Of a DNA stretch of 64,000 bases, positions 5,147-60,324 are shown piece by piece. The position numbers were made by a program, and so were the translations under genes. The stretch comes from a virus (lineage: Duplodnaviria; Caudoviricetes). Below the pieces are notes generated by a model that was not told the origin of the DNA, did not search any database, and saw only the letters and a list, made by a program, of their open reading frames with translations. The first letter of the stretch is position 1. Every line of letters begins with the position of its first letter. Where the stretch lies: the IMG/VR virus record IMGVR_UViG_3300026549_000029, positions 64,001 to 128,000 of that record; one strand, written 5' to 3'.

Positions 5147-6706
5147 ATGCCAAAAGATAAATCTAAAATAGCACAACATGGCTTGTCAGAAGAACAGATT
5201 AAAGTAATTGATAATTATAAAAATGAAATTAAACATATAGAAGGTACAATCAATGCAGTAAGAGCTAAGATAGGTATGTATCTTGGAGCTATGCATGATC
5301 AAGGATGGCTAAATGGATTTAGAGAGATATTTCAAAACTCTATTGATCAGGTAATTAATCCAGATTCTCCTTGTAATTTTGTATCAGTATTATATGATGA
5401 AAGAACATATAAATTTGCTGTACAAGATAATGGTATGGGAATTCCTTTTGATATGATTATTCAGATATATACAGAAGGACATACTGGACGAAATCTTACT
5501 AAAAGTAAAAAAGGAGATTATACTGCAGGAACTAATGGTATAGGTGCTAAAGTAACAAATGCAGTATCAGCATATTTTGATGTAATGTCTTATAGATATG
5601 ATGGTACATGCATGCATGTTAGATTTGAAAAAGGTAAATTAAAGAAACAAGAATTATTACCTAATAAGGAATTATTTCAAGGTACTAGAGTAGAATGTGA
5701 ACCTGATCATACTGTATTAGGAGAAACTCCATTAGATCCAGGCAGGGTGTATTTATTAGTAAGAGATACTTTATCTTTATTACCTATTGGAACTAAGATA
5801 GATTATACCAGTATTAATAAAAAAGGTAAAGTTTATCATGAATTAATGGTAAATGAAGATGGTATCATGACTAATATTATTGGTAAAAGTTCAGCTATGC
5901 TGATTGCACCAATTAATATTTATAATGATACTGGAGAAATGAAACTTGAAATGTCTTTTACATTTGATCAGCAGGATTTGGGTGGGGAAGATATTACAGC
6001 TTATGCTAATATGTGTCCTACAAGTACAGAAGCTAATAGAAATACTCATGTTGGTGGAGTATTAGATGGAATTTGTACTTGGTTCTGCAATTATATGAAT
6101 AAGACATTTCTAACAGATAAAGAAAAAGTTAAAATTAGAATAATGCCAAGTGATGTTAAAACTGGATTAAAAGTGATGATATCAGCTTGGGCATTAGAGC
6201 CTATTTTTACAGGACAAGCTAAAGAAATATTTTCTAATATAGAATATAAAGCTTATGCTAAATCTGTAGTAATGAATGCTTTAGATGAATGGGCTAAAGC
6301 TAAACCTCAAGATTTATTAAAATGCTGTAAATTTATTAAAGATATAGCAAATGTTAGAATAAAAACTGATTCTGAAAAAATTAAAGTTACAGCTAAATAT
6401 GAAACTTCTGCAACTAGTGGATTACCTGCTAAATATTTAAAACCAACTTCTAAAGATTATAAAAATACAGAATTGTTTATAGTAGAAGGAGATTCAGCAT
6501 TAGAGACTGCTAGAAATGCAAGAGATGTTAAAACCCAAGGAGTATTTCCTATTAGAGGTAAAATATTAAATGTATTTCAAGCAACTCCACAAAAAATTGC
6601 AGCTAATGTAGAAATAGCTTCTATTATACAGATCTTAGGAGCTGGATATGGTAAGAATTTTGACATAAATAAGTTAAAAGTAGGTAGAATTCTGTTATTA
6701 TCGGAT
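5147..6706 (+). CDS. gyrB: DNA gyrase/type IIA topoisomerase subunit B, exon 1
   Basis: GHKL motifs EIFQNSID, DNGMGIP, GTNGIG; TOPRIM motifs VEGDSA and PIRGKILN; ends ...RILLLSD at the intron. Confidence 0.93.
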
Positions 6707-7059
6707 GAATAAAAATGCGTCCGTAGATGCTTTTCCCAAAACCATGGGGGTTAGATATAATCTAGCTAACGGTAAGAGCTGAATAAGACTAATACATGAA
6801 GCCAAAAGAGATATGTATGTACTAACAAAAGACGAAGCAGCTCTCTAAGAAAGCCTAAGGTCCAGAAATGGATAGCTGGTAATACCGTGTGAAATTTTTA
6901 TTAATTAAATTAATAAGAAAAACATGTAACGACTATTCCTATATAGGAAGTACAGATATTATTGGTACATATCTGGAAAGAGCATCCTAGTTATTTTTAT
7001 AACTAGTAAAATATAGTCTAAGCCCTAATTAAATATCGAGAAATCGAGGGTACTAACTA
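6707..7059 (+). ncRNA. Group I intron (no ORF, 353 nt) in gyrB
   Basis: P1 CGGAU/GUCCG with U6706.G6719 wobble; P3 GAUGCUUUUCC/GGAAAGAGCAUC; P7 GACUA (6931-35)/UAGUC (7014-18). Removal restores the TOPRIM motif SD|ADSDGAHI in frame. Confidence 0.92.
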
Positions 7060-7896
7060 GCAGATTCAGATGGCGCACATATTTGCGACTTACTTTTATT
7101 AGTATTTCTTAAAATGTTCCCAGGTTTAGTTGAATCTGGTAAGGTTTATAAAGCTGTACCTCCTCTTTATGGTATTCCTTCTAAGAATAAAATGCAATAT
7201 TTTTCAGAGAGAATAGACTTTGTTAGATATATGCAGAAGGAATATTATAAGAAAAATACTGTTACTGATATTAAAGGTAAAGCTATAGACTCTAGTACAT
7301 TCTCTAGATTACTTATAGAGAATTCTGATTATATTTATGATTTTTCTATGATATCTGAAAGATATAAATTAAATCCTATGCTTCTTGAGATAGTACTTAC
7401 TTCATATATTGCAAAAGAAAGATTTGAAACTCTTAGAAAGAGGATTACATCTGAATTTAGATTTATGGAGAATAAGAATATTGAGAAGAGAGGATCTACT
7501 ATATTTATTAAAGGATTAATAAATGATAGAATAGAGACACTGTTTTATAATGATAGATTTATAAAAGATTGTGAACCTCTAATTGAACCTATAAGAAGAG
7601 CTATGTCTCAGAATCATATGCTATTTAAAGTGAATGGTAAAAAAGTAGGATTATATGAATTAGTATCTACTGCTATGGCATCATTAGGATCTATTAATAG
7701 ATATAAAGGTCTTGGTGAAATGAATGACTGGCAGTTAAGAGATTCTACTATGGATCCAAATACTAGAACTGTAATTCAATATACTATTGAAGATATTAAT
7801 GAAACTATGAAAATTATTAGACAATATGATTCTAATAAGAAAATGATTCTTCAAAAGATAGGTTCTGTAGATAGAGGAGATTTAATTGGATTATAA
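7060..7896 (+). CDS. gyrB: Gyrase subunit B, exon 2 (spliced product 798 aa)
   Basis: ADSDGAHICDLLL...PPLY...RYKGLGEMN; in frame with track ORF 7114. Confidence 0.92.
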   Translation, partial: ADSDGAHICDLLLLVFLKMFPGLVESGKVYKAVPPLYGIPSKNKMQYFSERIDFVRYMQKEYYKKNTVTDIKGKAIDSSTFSRLLIENSDYIYDFSMISERYKLNPMLLEIVLTSYIAKERFETLRKRITSEFRFMENKNIEKRGSTIFIKGLINDRIETLFYNDRFIKDCEPLIEPIRRAMSQNHMLFKVNGKKVGLYELVSTAMASLGSINRYKGLGEMNDWQLRDSTMDPNTRTVIQYTIEDINETMKIIRQYDSNKKMILQKIGSVDRGDLIGL

Positions 7897-54411: not shown

Positions 54412-54735
54412 GTGAAAATAAAGCAAAAATTTAATAAAATAAATTTTCTAAATATAATAGCTTTTCTATATGAATATTCTGGTTTAATTGTATTAATAGG
54501 TATAATAATATTTATTATAGTTAATTTAATAATTCATAATTTTATTGGTAATCAATCTATTATAGATACTAAATATCATTTTCATACAGCTATAATAAAA
54601 TTACCTAATGATGAAATAGTAGAAGGTGAAATTAAAAATTGGAAAGATTATAGTAATTCTGATCAGATACAGATTACATTTGAAGATGGTACTACTTATT
54701 TGGTTCATTCAAATAATGCAGCACTGATATATTGA
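54412..54735 (+). CDS. Small membrane-anchored phage protein
   Basis: One TM segment, then IIKLPN.EIVEG...W.DY..SDQIQ...G.TYLVH. Confidence 0.75.
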   Translation: MKIKQKFNKINFLNIIAFLYEYSGLIVLIGIIIFIIVNLIIHNFIGNQSIIDTKYHFHTAIIKLPNDEIVEGEIKNWKDYSNSDQIQITFEDGTTYLVHSNNAALIY

Positions 54736-54760
54736 TAAGAATGAAAAGAGGAAATTATTA

Positions 54761-55186
54761 ATGAATAAAATAAATGTAAAAGATCATCCTATATTAGTAC
54801 AATATAGAGATACAATGACTAGAATATTAAATTCTAAATATCCTTTAATGAATAAAAATGATATAGAAAAAGCAGTAGAATTTTCTATACAGAAAAGATT
54901 TAAAGATTTTAATCTCAGTATACAAAATAAGTATATTGGAAAAACTGTCGATATGACAGCATTAGCCATGCTAGATTATATAAGGAATAGAGAGCCTATT
55001 ATAACTAGCTATGGTACAATGTTTAGAAAACACGATACTGTACCTAATCCAATGGGTAAAGTTATTCAAAGTTTTCTTGATTTAAGAAAAGCTCAAAAGA
55101 AAGAAATGTTCAAATATCCTAAAGGAAGTGAGATGTTTGAACGATGGAATTTATTACAAAACTTATCTAAAATTGATACAAATGGT
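54761..55186 (+). CDS. Family-B DNA polymerase (phiKZ/AR9-like polymerase subunit), exon 1
   Basis: LDLRKAQKKEM...Q...KIDTNG is the first half of motif B. Confidence 0.88.
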
Positions 55187-55552
55187 TAATAATATAGCCC
55201 ACTTATTAGGAAACTAATAGGTTGAATACCAAGAAATTGCTGGAAAATCCTAAAGCTCTCTTGCCTATATGGAGTGAAAACAGAAATAAGTAGAGAGATG
55301 AACTATGGTGAAATAAAAGCTCTTAATATAATAAGAGTCCTAAGGTTTATTAATAATGGATGATCAGCAGCCAAGCTCTATATTATTATATAGAGAAGGT
55401 TCAACGACTAATTGTAAGGCTCAAGTGAGTCTGAAAACTTGGTACACCTAACCTAGAAATAGTATGGTGAAGATATAGTCTGTCCTTTAAGGAAATCTTA
55501 AAGAAGTTCATAAGAGAACTACATAGATTAACGACCTATGTGAACATAAGAG
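55187..55552 (+). ncRNA. Group I intron 1 of the DNA polymerase gene (366 nt, no ORF)
   Basis: P1 GGU/GCC with U.G; P3 UACCAAG/CUUGGUA; P4 UUGCUG/CAGCAG; P7 GACUA (55406-10)/UAGUC (55476-80); terminal G55552. Confidence 0.92.
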
Positions 55553-55562
55553 ATTTACGGTT
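55553..55562 (+). CDS. DNA polymerase 10-nt micro-exon (ATTTACGGTT = I-Y-G + first base of L)
   Basis: Supplies the invariant YG of motif B and restores the reading frame between exons 1 and 3. Confidence 0.88.
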
Positions 55563-55877
55563 TAACATATTAGACCTCTTATATAGAAATATATAAGTAA
55601 AAACAGGGTTAAAATTGGAAGAAGGTTAGATTGGCCATCTAATATTCAATCAATTACGAACACTACTTTTAGTAGGGACGTTTAACGACTATCCTCTTAA
55701 GAGGAGTAGGGCTCAAGCGAGCGTGGCATTCTTGTAAATGTAAGTCCACTTAATTCGAAAATCCTGCACCTAAACCTAATTATTTGGCATGGTGATTATA
55801 TAGTCTCAGCATTCAGGTAACACTTGAAGAAGTTCATAAGAGAACTGCACAGATTAGCGACCTGTGTGAAGATACTG
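55563..55877 (+). ncRNA. Group I intron 2 of the DNA polymerase gene (315 nt, no ORF)
   Basis: P1 GGUU/GACC with U55562.G55573; P3 CAGGGUU/AAUCCUG; P7 GACUA (55687-91)/UAGUC (55801-05); terminal G55877. Confidence 0.9.
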
Positions 55878-57688
55878 TGATTGGCCTTTATGTTTCTATC
55901 CTTTTTGATCTTAATATAGCACCAGCAGTTACTTCTACTGGTAGATCCCTTATATCTTCTGCTATATTATGTTTTGAAGGATTTCTTGGAAATAATGTAA
56001 AATTTTCATCTTTAAATGATATTCTTATTTTTATAGATAATGTAAGATTAGAATATTCATCTTGGCAGTATAATGATTATGAGGTTCTTCCTACAGAAGG
56101 ATTTGTATCTTTAGAAGAAGCTTTTACTAAACTTATCTTAAATTGTGGATATAAGTATACACCTTCTTATGAAGATATGGATACTGTATATCGTATATTA
56201 CAGTCCTGCAATCAAATAGAGTTAAATAGATTATTTTATAAGAATAATTTATACTGCTTTATGGATCTTCCTATAGCAAGAAATCTTATGATATCTATTA
56301 TAACTAATATGCAGACTCCTTATATAGAACCTGCAAAACCACCTAAAGAAATTGTTCCTCAATTAAATGAGTTAAGAGATCTATTAGTAGAATATGTATT
56401 CTATAATCATCAATGGATGGATAGAATGGATAGAAATAAGAATATGATTAAGAATGTTTCTATTGTATCTGATACTGATTCATCTTTTGTATCTTTAGAT
56501 GCATGGTATCATTATAATATGACATATCTTAAAGATTATGATTCTCCTATTTTACATCAGAAGATAGACCTCTTTATGAAATTAGAGAAAGAGAAGAAAT
56601 CTGATTATTGGAAAGATAAAGAAATTCCAGAATGGTATAATGCTATTAATAAAACAGAAGTAGTAGAGTTTTTAGATACTGATGAATTTGGAGATCTTAA
56701 AGATCTATCTAGATTAAATGGAATAGAATTTCTTGATAATGAAAAAGACTATGATTTTTATAATCAAGAGATTATAGAAAAGAAAAGATTAATAAATGCT
56801 TTAGAGATTATACCACAAGATAATTTAAAGTTTGCTTTAATAAATATTATGTGTTATATTTTATCTACTATTATTAATCTCTATATGATTGATTTTACTA
56901 AACAGTCTGGATCTTATAGATCAGACGAATTATGTAGAATCAATATGAAAAACGAGTTTATGATGTCCAGGATCATGTTATGTACAACGAAAAAAAATTA
57001 TGCATCCTTACAAATTTTGCAAGAAGGAAATTATCTTGGTGGAGTACTTGATGTAAAAGGAATTCCTTGTTTAACAAAATCTGTTATATCTAAAGATACA
57101 CAGAAAGCTTTAAGAAAGATTTTATTAGAAGATATTCTTACAGGAAAAGTAGATCAATTAAAATTAATAAAAGATATAGCTATACTTGAAAGAGAAATTT
57201 ATAATGATCTTAAAAGTGGTAGCAAAAAATATTTTAAACCTGCAATAATTAGAGATATTGATAATTATGAAACTCCACTTAGAATACAAGGGATTAAAGC
57301 AGCTATTGCATGGAACTATGTTAGAACAGGACTTCCTGGATTTGATTTAACTAATAGAAATTCTTTAGATATAGTAAAAATTAAAATAGATAAAAATTCT
57401 GTAATTAAAATAAGAGATCAATATCCTGCACAATATGAAAAATTTTGTGATATATTAGAATCTAAAAATAATATACAATTAGAAGGATTTAATTTACATG
57501 AAATATTTGGAGGAAAATTAGAGAATATTGCTATTCCTAAAGACCTTCCAGTTCCAGAATGGTTAATTCCTTTTATTGATTATGAATCTATTATTAATGA
57601 TAATTTAGCTACATTTCCTGTAGAATCTATAGGTTTAGGCAGTTTTGGTAATAAAAAACCTAACTATAATAATGTGGTAAAATTATAA
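55878..57688 (+). CDS. Family-B DNA polymerase, exon 3 (spliced product 748 aa)
   Basis: LIG...IAPAVTSTGR, motif C SDTDS, KKNY...DVKG. Confidence 0.9.
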
Positions 57689-57749
57689 ATATTAAATTTA
57701 ATAGGTAGGAATAAATTTATTCCTACCTATTAAATAAAAGGATAAAAAT

Positions 57750-58928
57750 ATGATTATAGATAAAAATGGAAATAAACATGTAGAAATAGGTGATAAATAT
57801 GGTAAACTTACTGTGATAGAAAAATCTAATAATGATTATATAACTTCATTCGGATATCATATTCCAAAATATATATGTAAATGTGAATGTGGTAATTATA
57901 CAGAAATATTAGAATATAGTTTAACAAATAATCGTACAAAATCATGTGGCCATTGTAGTAATATTCATATTGGAGATAAATTTGGAAAATTAACAGTATT
58001 AGAAAAAGATAAAAATGATTGTATATTACCATCAGGAAGGCATATTCCAAAATATATATGTAAATGTGAATGTGGCAATATAATATCTGTATTAAAATAT
58101 ACTTTACTTAGAAATCAAAAATTATCATGTGGTAATTGTAATTCAATTCATATTGGAGATAAATTTGGAAAATTAACAGTAATATCTAAAGCCAGTGATT
58201 ATATAAATCCTAATTCTGGAAATTGTATTAAAAGATGGCTTTGCAAATGTGAGTGCGGTAATACTACAATAGTAAGAGATAATGATTTAAAACGTGGTAT
58301 AACTAAATCATGTGGATGCTTGATTATTGAACAATTAAAAAAGAGAAATAGTACTCATTTATTATCTAATACACTATTATATAGAGAATATAGTAGTATG
58401 ATACAAAGATGCTATAACCCAAACAATATTAGATATCCAGAATATGGTCAAAGAGGAATACAAGTTTGTAGAGAATGGTATAATTCAGATTATAAAAAAG
58501 GATTTGATCCAGAATGTATTAATATATTTTATAATTGGGCAATAAATAATGGGTATAAAGAAGGTTTAACTATTGATCGAATCAATGTTAATGGTAATTA
58601 TGAACCTAGTAATTGTAGATGGATACCAAAAGAATATCAAGCACATAATAGAAGAAATAGTATAAAAATAAATCTTAATGGAGAAATATATGATATAGGA
58701 CAAATTTCTAGTATATTAGGTATAGATTATATGTTTTTATATCATCGATTAAAGAAGAATAATTATAATTTATCTTCTTTATTTACTTATATTACAGATC
58801 AATATGGTAATACTAGACCTTATATATTAGATAAATATAATAATCCTATACCTATTAATATTATATACTTTATAGATGAATATGGATTTCCTATATCACA
58901 AGATAAGATAAATGAATCTAATATCTAA
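57750..58928 (+). CDS. Free-standing HNH endonuclease with three Cys-rich N-terminal repeats
   Basis: 3 x IGDK(F/Y)GKLTV...CKCECGN...SCG; MIQRC, YGQRGI.VC.EW, LTIDRINVNGNYEPSNCRW. Confidence 0.9.
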   Translation: MIIDKNGNKHVEIGDKYGKLTVIEKSNNDYITSFGYHIPKYICKCECGNYTEILEYSLTNNRTKSCGHCSNIHIGDKFGKLTVLEKDKNDCILPSGRHIPKYICKCECGNIISVLKYTLLRNQKLSCGNCNSIHIGDKFGKLTVISKASDYINPNSGNCIKRWLCKCECGNTTIVRDNDLKRGITKSCGCLIIEQLKKRNSTHLLSNTLLYREYSSMIQRCYNPNNIRYPEYGQRGIQVCREWYNSDYKKGFDPECINIFYNWAINNGYKEGLTIDRINVNGNYEPSNCRWIPKEYQAHNRRNSIKINLNGEIYDIGQISSILGIDYMFLYHRLKKNNYNLSSLFTYITDQYGNTRPYILDKYNNPIPINIIYFIDEYGFPISQDKINESNI

Positions 58929-59096
58929 ATTATAATAAAGAAAATATTATAATAGTGAATGAAATTAACTTATTCACTATTATAATTATATAAGGATAAA
59001 ATAAAATGACAAATTATATTATGGAAATAACCGAAGAAGAGAAAAATATTTTTAAAGAGATTATTAAATATAAATATTTTGAAGAGGGATAAAAAT

Positions 59097-59465
59097 ATGA
59101 AATTTTGGATTATTCATGAAGATTATTATGAAGATTTAAAACTTTATGATCCTATAGAAAATAGTGATATTATTTATGTCGCTAAAAGTGAAGAAGAAGC
59201 AAATAATTATATAGATAATCTTTATAATAAAAATTTAGATCTTATTATTGAATCAAATGAAAAATCTAAAACGTTTAGAAGTACAATATCTGATCTAATG
59301 GCTGAAAAGAAAAGAAGAAAAAATAATATAGTATCTACTATTAAATATTATTCTATTGCTTGCCATAAACTTTGTAAAGATAAAGAAGGCAATGAATATA
59401 TGAAACTTACTAGTGTAAATAATTATGTTTATAATATTATTGAAATTGAAATAAAAGAAGGTTAA
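59097..59465 (+). CDS. hypothetical protein
   Basis: Likely start ATG59097 after GAGGG; preceded by a 28-codon ORF at 59006-59092. Confidence 0.7.
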   Translation: MKFWIIHEDYYEDLKLYDPIENSDIIYVAKSEEEANNYIDNLYNKNLDLIIESNEKSKTFRSTISDLMAEKKRRKNNIVSTIKYYSIACHKLCKDKEGNEYMKLTSVNNYVYNIIEIEIKEG

Positions 59466-59510
59466 TCCTTCTTTTATTTTTAATATTTTCAATAATATAT
59501 AATAAATATG

Positions 59511-59643
59511 AATAAATTGGATGGCCCTGAGAGTAATCGAGGTGAGCGATTATGGAGAAATTCTCCCTGGGTTAGAGTACACGACCCGGAGATATTGGCT
59601 ACGGTCAAATATGTGTACTACCTCTCCATACATCCAATTTATT
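59511..59643 (+). ncRNA. Candidate ~130-nt pseudoknotted ncRNA
   Basis: GC-rich island; 13-bp closing stem, internal stems, cUACGg tetraloop, 7-bp loop pseudoknot; promoter motif before and T run after. Confidence 0.7.
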
Positions 59644-59744
59644 TTTTTTATTAAATATATTTTTTTATTAAATAAATGATTTCTAATATTTTCTATAAAA
59701 AGATATTATAATATTGAAACAAAATATGAAAGGAGAATGTTACT

Positions 59745-60104
59745 ATGTATGATTTTAAATTGTATCAAAAAGTATCACAAAAGTTACAGAAGAAAATGGA
59801 AGATGAATATAATTGGAAAATTGATTCTTATGGGATACTTGATAAGGATGATGGAATATCATTTATAAGATATATAAATACAAAGAATCCATCATCTACA
59901 TTAAATATATATGAAGATGGAGATTGCTATTTAGATGATAAAATTTATTATCCTTCAGCACAAGAAATGGAATTAATTAAAAAGATTATTAGATTAGAAC
60001 TTTCAGATGATAATACTGTGATAAATGAACTTAAGAGGTATGCAAATAATAATAAGGAGAATGAATATGAAAACTATTTTTCTTGTTTTAGAGATATCCA
60101 CTAA
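59745..60104 (+). CDS. hypothetical protein
   Basis: AAGGAG RBS; promoter motif at 59704. Confidence 0.75.
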   Translation: MYDFKLYQKVSQKLQKKMEDEYNWKIDSYGILDKDDGISFIRYINTKNPSSTLNIYEDGDCYLDDKIYYPSAQEMELIKKIIRLELSDDNTVINELKRYANNNKENEYENYFSCFRDIH

Positions 60105-60324
60105 TAATGATGGTAGTAAGAAAAGAAGAGCATTATCTTTCTCTGAAAAGTATAAAGCAATAAATTTTATTACAGAATATGTAAATCATAAATATGATGA
60201 AAAATATATATGTAAACTTAATGATGATGAAAAATATAAAAATAATAATTTATATAAAAGAATTATTACAGAAACTTCTACAATAGAATATTATATAGAG
60301 GAGATTGATTATATAGATGAATAA
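60061..60324 (+). CDS. hypothetical protein
   Basis: AAGGAG just upstream of ATG60061/60067. Confidence 0.7.
   Translation: MNMKTIFLVLEISTNNDGSKKRRALSFSEKYKAINFITEYVNHKYDEKYICKLNDDEKYKNNNLYKRIITETSTIEYYIEEIDYIDE

Follow-up and report, generated by a model that had tools for sequence, protein, structure and literature searches.

Phage genes with more than one group I intron have been described before, as have small internal exons and the skipping of exons. The gene orf142 of Staphylococcus phage Twort carries three group I introns and undergoes exon skipping (Landthaler and Shub, 1999, as cited in PMC11878797, PMC3073962). In phiNIT1, a member of the Herelleviridae, replication genes contain several group I introns, many of them HNH-bearing, and a small internal exon that was revealed solely by complementary DNA (cDNA) reads and whose size is not given in the main text of the report (PMC11878797). 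SPO1 and Bastille, too, have DNA polymerase genes with HNH-encoding group I introns (cited in PMC11878797). Intron-rich jumbo phages have been documented (PMC12880540); in AR9/PBS1-like and phiKZ-like jumbo phages, group I introns without an open reading frame (ORF) lie in catalytic motifs of RNA polymerase and other genes, at hotspots that are filled differently, and AR9_g145 is annotated as joined from three pieces. Outside phages, mini-exons between group I introns are known from mitochondria (MFannot, PMC10352661), including a 1-bp exon in placozoan cox1 (PMC5436844). Here, we describe a DNA polymerase gene in a 64,000-nucleotide (nt) stretch of viral DNA (the window; positions 64001-128000 of virus record IMGVR_UViG_3300026549_000029), in which two tandem group I introns flank a 10-nt exon within the codons of polymerase motif B.

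The locus resembles these systems in different respects. As far as the sources citing orf142 describe it, Twort is similar in that several related ORF-less group I introns occupy one phage gene, where neighbouring related introns raise the possibility of skipping; orf142, however, is the gene of a tail tube protein, whereas here a 10-nt internal exon falls in a catalytic motif of a polymerase. The phiNIT1 polymerase, according to the same main text, belongs to family A and to the Herelleviridae, in contrast to the split, divergent family B polymerase of the present jumbo phage. Introns of the SPO1 and Bastille type, as cited there, correspond to the HNH-bearing homologues found in two relatives of our phage (L015 and L017, below), whereas the introns of the window are ORF-less and differ in polymerase family and insertion site. 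With the introns of AR9-like and phiKZ-like phages they share the features listed above, yet this site is uninterrupted in g152, the AR9 polymerase gene, and here the target is motif B of a DNA polymerase and splicing is seen in RNA data. Like the mitochondrial mini-exons, the micro-exon is shorter than ~4 codons, is flanked by two independent group I introns, escapes gene callers and is found through a missing conserved residue; those cases, however, are organellar and often spliced with protein assistance, whereas this one lies in a virulent-type phage genome and shows presence/absence polymorphism among near relatives. A literature search for micro-exons in connection with phages and group I introns found nothing relevant. 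Against this documented background, it is the RNA evidence and the series of natural alleles that stand out.

We regard it as very probable (about 0.92) that two mobile group I introns, independent of each other and now ORF-less, have entered the single-copy gene for the catalytic subunit of a split, divergent family B polymerase at homing sites that lie 10 nt from each other in the motif B codons. The structural part of this reading, namely two tandem introns, a 10-nt exon encoding IYG and a frame that is broken if this exon is skipped, is supported by covariance-model matches, gap-free protein alignment, intronless alleles and an RNA contig.

The interrupted polymerase gene and its two introns

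The virus record comprises 287,868 bp at 27.7% GC and is rated complete, and the sequencing runs that contain the window stretch are nearly all bovine or sheep gut metagenomes. The genome is that of a rumen jumbo phage of ~288 kb, distantly related to AR9/PBS1. The two ORFs that flank the introns represent one gene, since both match the DNA polymerase profile phrog_2927, the upstream one over profile positions 17-160 and the downstream one up to position 686 of 710 (E 3.5e-48). The downstream ORF also matches Pfam PF20286 (divDNApol, divergent family B DNA polymerase) at 81.5 bits, with a cutoff of 25.7. The closest named relatives, at ~26-30% identity, are annotated as 'DNA polymerase catalytic subunit' in Bacillus phage AR9/PBS1, Staphylococcus jumbo phages and Yersinia phage phiR1-37. 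A search of the genome found the catalytic-subunit gene in single copy. The features of the locus are:

54761..55186, + strand: exon 1 of the DNA polymerase catalytic subunit, 426 nt, 142 codons, ending in KIDTNG (ORF list, phrog_2927, tblastn to AR9 g152)
55187..55552, + strand: group I intron 1, 366 nt, no ORF; P1 formed by 55184-55188 with 55195-55199; terminal G at 55552
55503..55552, + strand: 3' domain of intron 1 with P9.1/P9.2 hairpins, sharing ~90% identity with the end of intron 2 (55829-55877)
55553..55562, + strand: 10-nt micro-exon ATTTACGGTT, coding for residues IYG of motif B and supplying base 1 of the Leu codon that follows; the final 4 nt are the exon half of intron 2 P1
55563..55877, + strand: group I intron 2, 315 nt, no ORF; P1 formed by 55559-55565 with 55570-55576; terminal G at 55877
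55829..55877, + strand: 3' domain of intron 2, direct-repeat partner of 55503-55552
55878..57688, + strand: exon 3, 1811 nt, starting with TG that completes the Leu codon and holding AVTSTGR, motif C (SDTDS) and the stop codon

In genomic DNA, exon 1 closes with AAT GGT and is followed directly by TAA, and the frame from 55878 is open through 57688. The first-pass annotation, which was made from the sequence of the window without database searches, had placed two introns and 10 nt in the gap between the polymerase ORFs; this content is borne out, although the gap measures 691 nt (366+10+315) and not the 690 nt that it gave. Its joining of 426+10+1811 nt does produce a single open frame of 748 amino acids (aa), reading KIDTNG-IYG-LIGLYVSILFDLNIAPAVTSTGR, and the family B motif B KIDTNGIYG (KxxxNxxYG) is present in this doubly spliced product only. 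The alignment with intronless jumbo-phage polymerases that it had suggested as a check runs without a gap over both junctions for AR9 g152 (KLLANSFYGATV...), Staphylococcus phage SA1 and phiR1-37 g167, with the micro-exon residues IYG opposite the FYG/YYG of these polymerases. Every outcome other than precise removal of both introns with retention of the 10 nt leads to a stop codon within 7 codons of residue 142: if the exon is skipped, which had been anticipated to shift the frame, GGT|TGA ends it at once; removal of intron 1 alone gives a stop seven codons on; and removal of intron 2 alone leaves the TAA in place. The exon is too short for gene callers, which, as the same annotation remarked, cannot see it, and the consequence is a polymerase annotated in two fragments from which motif B is seemingly absent.

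Both introns match the group I intron model RF00028 of Rfam in a search of 55100-55950, in agreement with the two cores proposed at 55187-55552 and 55563-55877. The match to intron 1 covers 55178-55503 (67.8 bits, E 6e-17, model positions 1-253), above the gathering score of 50; the weaker match to intron 2 is weighed below. Each match begins a few bases into the upstream exon, like the P1 of the model. The same model gave no match on the whole 64-kb window, either at the gathering score or at E<=0.001, but these empty runs are a filter effect, as both introns surface when 851 nt are searched. A pattern search for a core motif (GATATAGTC, 1 mismatch) returned 19 matches against 30 expected and is uninformative in DNA this rich in AT.

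The proposed U.G pair at each 5' splice site and the terminal G of each intron are also found. In intron 1, GGU|UA pairs with UAGCC (G55184-C55199, G55185-C55198, U55186.G55197, U55187-A55196, A55188-U55195), so that U55186.G55197 stands at the splice site. In intron 2, GGUU|UAA pairs with UUAGACC (G55559-C55576, G55560-C55575, U55561-A55574, U55562.G55573, U55563-A55572, A55564-U55571, A55565-U55570), with U55562.G55573 in the equivalent position. When each segment is folded in isolation, its P1 hairpin is the minimum-energy structure, that of intron 2 with a z of -3.3. The register that cmscan assigns to intron 1 P1 is one base off, and does not restore the frame. The terminal G of each intron (55552 and 55877) directly precedes the 3' exon, at positions that agree with the RNA junctions described below.

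Comparison of related sequences adds to this picture. A consensus fold of intron 2 from three homologues (the window, L017 and L010) shows compensatory changes in 23 of its 91 pairs, including a P1 pair that appears as U-A, G-C and A-U. The last ~50 nt of introns 1 and 2 are ~90% identical to each other in pairwise alignment, and one hairpin in this common 3' domain differs in a compensatory manner (CATAG/CTATG versus CACAG/CTGTG); an exact 17-mer of the domain occurs only at 55503 and 55829. At the DNA level, the introns are 70-85% identical to intron cores of Staphylococcus, Vibrio and Bacillus jumbo phages. No ORF of at least 40 aa is present on either strand of 55187-55877, and hence the introns of the window encode no homing endonuclease.

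Motif A (DxxSLYPS) does not occur in the catalytic-subunit gene. It resides in a separate partner gene at genome ~155.5 kb, which fits the split polymerase of AR9-like phages. This partner gene holds a group I intron of its own (genome 155518-155881; L005:1453-1816), ~27.5 kb past the end of the window, which interrupts motif A as DFD|YSSLYPS and whose 5' half resembles intron 1 while its 3' half resembles intron 2 (nhmmer; sequence). The catalytic subunit itself contains an insertion of ~80 aa after motif C (LFMKLEKEKK..., window ~56570-56810) that AR9, SA1 and phiR1-37 do not have. The annotation of phiR1-37 divides the catalytic subunit between g167 and g164, which are separated by ~330 nt (L003:3783-4116) containing two tiny ORFs; this gap may be an unannotated intron.

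RNA junctions and alleles in related phages

Contigs of three bovine-gut metatranscriptome runs (X3, X4 and X6) and of one DNA run (X2) were compared with 54700-57750 of the window. A 712-nt contig of RNA run X6 (depth 6, zero mismatches) consists of 54950-55186, the exact 10-nt exon and 55878-56342, and thereby contains both predicted junctions, 55186^55553 and 55562^55878. The DNA run, in which the locus has ~128x depth, has no joint from 55186 to 55878, and its contigs run through 55186/55187 and 55877/55878 unbroken. In X6, position 55552 is also joined back to 55188 (the contig 'goes back 365'; depth 66.8), a junction that is absent from DNA and is what is expected of a circularised intron 1 minus its first base. 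The compared contigs show no such circle junction for intron 2. As a weak hint in the same direction, RNA contigs of X3, X4 and X6 start or stop exactly at 55186, 55552 and 55878. Half-spliced or exon-skipped joints do not occur among the contigs, although assembled contigs lose rare forms, so that their absence from the samples is not implied. Taken as a whole, the RNA evidence is good but not exhaustive, and none of the known intronless alleles is similar enough to have given rise to the joined contig.

Some further observations on these runs concern other copies of the introns. At window positions 55873 and 55552, contigs of RNA run X3 leave both introns at their 3' ends and go on in unrelated sequence, for which reason close copies of introns 1 and 2 are probably present in other genes or other phages of those samples. 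A joint from 55410 to 55798 in the DNA run is probably explained by the partner-gene intron (genome 155518-155881). The RNA depth of intron 1 relative to that of the exons was not used as evidence, being confounded by paralogues and other organisms.

Related phage contigs present the locus in several states. Three from the rumen, L009 (L014 is the same genome, of 274 kb), L012 and L013, have no introns; they read KID(V)NG-IYG-LIG uninterrupted and share ~75-85% identity with the window in exon DNA. In L009, the sequence is AAT GGC ATA TAT GGG TTG ATC; in L012, AAT GGT is followed by the identical 10 bases ATTTACGGTT and by TG ATC. As these alleles read through in the same length, the mRNA predicted for the window is what they encode. 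The same tandem layout, with introns at sites 1 and 2 around a 10-nt exon ATTTACGGGT, recurs in L017 (~70% protein identity), where intron 1 measures 1052 nt and contains an ORF for a 227-aa HNH endonuclease. L015 is occupied at site 2 only, by a 1193-nt intron with a 282-aa HNH ORF (Pfam HNH_3, phrog_59). L010 has intron 1 at the same site (RF00028, 51.2 bits) and an empty site 2, together with an intron-2-like element at a further site, site 0, 18 nt upstream of the intron 1 site; the 18-nt exon between them encodes KIDVNG. A search of L010 with RF00028 at E<=0.001 did not detect this upstream element. For every intron-bearing allele of the relatives, splicing in silico yields an open frame that contains the same motif. 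The P1 of intron 2 covaries with its exon in L017, L015 and L010, being GGUU/GACC in the window and GGGU/GCCC in L017 and L015. The relatives thus fill, in different combinations, three insertion sites that fall in a span of 28 nt at the motif B codons, so that the presence/absence polymorphism at the same sites among close relatives by which mobile group I introns are recognised is found here.

Origin of the tandem arrangement

A coherent account of the locus would begin with two mobile group I introns that inserted independently at homing sites 10 nt apart in the motif B codons and later lost their endonuclease ORFs. Each intron is predicted to fold alone, the guide UAGCC pairing with GGU of exon 1 in intron 1 and UUAGACC with GGUU of the micro-exon in intron 2. 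Each presumably splices by the standard two-step, guanosine-initiated reaction, which would be autocatalytic and protein-free, and precise removal of both with the 10 nt kept would restore the 748-aa frame. Since the sites are filled in different combinations, some with HNH ORFs, two independent homing events are the simplest reading, and the micro-exon most likely arose simply through the distance at which the homing sites happen to lie, and not as an adaptation or a regulatory device. Introns 1 and 2 are above chance in view of the cmscan E-values, the 23/91 compensatory pairs, the intronless alleles and the RNA contig with the predicted junctions. Some points nevertheless weigh against this account. 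The RF00028 match to intron 2 (55553-55829, 37.1 bits, E 1e-7, model positions 1-253) lies under the 50 bits of the gathering score, support for this intron coming instead from the 23 compensatory pairs and from its excision in RNA; intron 1 has a weak P10 of 2-3 bp at best; the allele survey is small, with about seven distinct contigs; and the support from RNA is one assembled contig of depth 6 from one run, set beside a DNA run that is not of the same sample.

The joined contig could alternatively stem from an intronless allele with identical exons, either transcribed or present as DNA in the RNA library, without any splicing. RNA libraries can contain DNA, and intronless alleles do exist in rumen samples, but the known ones differ from the window at about 15-25% of exon positions while the contig has 0 mismatches over 702 nt. 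In addition, the DNA run contains the intron-bearing form at ~128x without the joint, and the same RNA run holds the circle junction of intron 1, with contigs of three RNA runs breaking exactly at 55186 and 55878. This source of the contig is accordingly very unlikely. It is still harder to regard the 691 nt as one composite element, either a twintron or one intron whose ends lie elsewhere, in which the 10 nt are no true exon. Adjacent, related cores can indeed resemble a nested or duplicated intron. However, the RNA contig keeps the 10 nt, which in intronless alleles simply form part of the coding sequence; a separate P1 and terminal G belong to each of the two introns; and either site can be filled while the other is empty, as site 2 is in L015 and site 1 in L010. 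All this makes a composite element exceedingly improbable; a twintron in particular was rejected on the retention of the 10 nt in RNA and their coding role in intronless alleles.

The remaining question is whether the tandem layout has a function of its own. The first-pass annotation had argued that two ribozymes must use the same 10 nt, and that ordered or coupled splicing, or skipping of the exon, might gate polymerase output and replication. In favour of such a gate, incomplete or skipped products all terminate at or shortly after residue 142, the partner gene also needs a splice, which would make three events for an active enzyme, the near-identical 3' domains could permit swapping of 3' splice sites, and Twort orf142 and phage SIOphi are documented cases of exon skipping (as reported in PMC11878797). 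The premise of a common 10 nt does not hold, since the P1 of intron 2 takes just the last 4 nt (GGUU) of the micro-exon and a possible P10 of intron 1 at most its first 2-3 nt; with the two ribozymes using separate parts, neither order nor coupling is forced. The layout is also not conserved, with L009, L012 and L013 intronless and L010 and L015 showing other combinations, and no skipped or half-spliced joint is seen among the contigs, which cannot show rare forms. As close relatives manage without them, the introns appear to be dispensable mobile elements and no conserved replication gate; no support for gating by two splicing events was found, and a functional tandem is distinctly unlikely. 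A weaker form of the idea, that the two ribozymes interact by using each other's splice sites, so that skipping or an obligatory order would tune the amount of full-length polymerase, draws on the near-identical 3' domains and the similar GGU|UA contexts, which make such cross-use possible. As each insertion destroys the site targeted by the other, co-conversion of both introns together would then be the only way for the pair to spread. We consider this interaction unlikely as well.

Under independent invasion at two neighbouring homing sites, the locus is a clean example of how selfish introns accumulate in the codons that are most strongly conserved in essential phage genes. Such cases are probably under-counted in metagenomic phage genomes, because the exon is too short for gene callers and Rfam searches of long stretches miss both introns. 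The natural allele series, with 0, 1 or 2 introns at three sites in 28 nt, with and without HNH ORFs, and with in vivo RNA evidence, makes the locus a convenient system in which to study competition between introns, their co-conversion and the skipping of exons. It leaves the knowledge of group I introns as such unchanged.

Other introns in the genome and the downstream HNH gene

A second tandem pair of group I introns lies outside the window at genome 6280-6986 (L006:1183-1889; RF00028 61.1 and 73.2 bits), where it splits the gene of the RNA polymerase beta-prime subunit around a 16-nt exon (L006 1484-1499). When spliced, this gene reads NRNP|TISYG|SILCMF...AADFDGD; the P9 region of the first intron of the pair is almost absent. 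A further element resembling intron 1 is found at genome 262610-262909 (L008), just upstream of the codons for DYDGD, in a gene that probably encodes another RNA polymerase subunit. A search of L005, L006 and L008 together with RF00028 detected only the two introns of the RNA polymerase pair and missed the paralogues located at 155.5 kb and 262.6 kb of the genome. A candidate group I intron in gyrB (window 6701-7065), which shows the core-like words AACGACTA and ATATAGTCTAAG, gave no Rfam match at E<=0.01 in a search of 6600-7150.

Directly downstream of the polymerase gene, an insertion of ~2.6 kb (57695-60322), absent from L009 and L010, carries a further gene:

57750..58928, + strand: free-standing HNH endonuclease gene, 392 aa, with repeated Cys-rich N-terminal modules (phrog_374, E 2.8e-83)

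The encoded protein has no significant similarity to the intron-encoded HNH endonucleases of L015 and L017, and no link between the gene and the presence of introns was found, the gene being missing both from the intronless L009 and from the two-intron L010. That this endonuclease moves the introns of the window is no more than a guess. Two paralogues of the gene are present in the genome, at ~132.0 kb and 279.7 kb.

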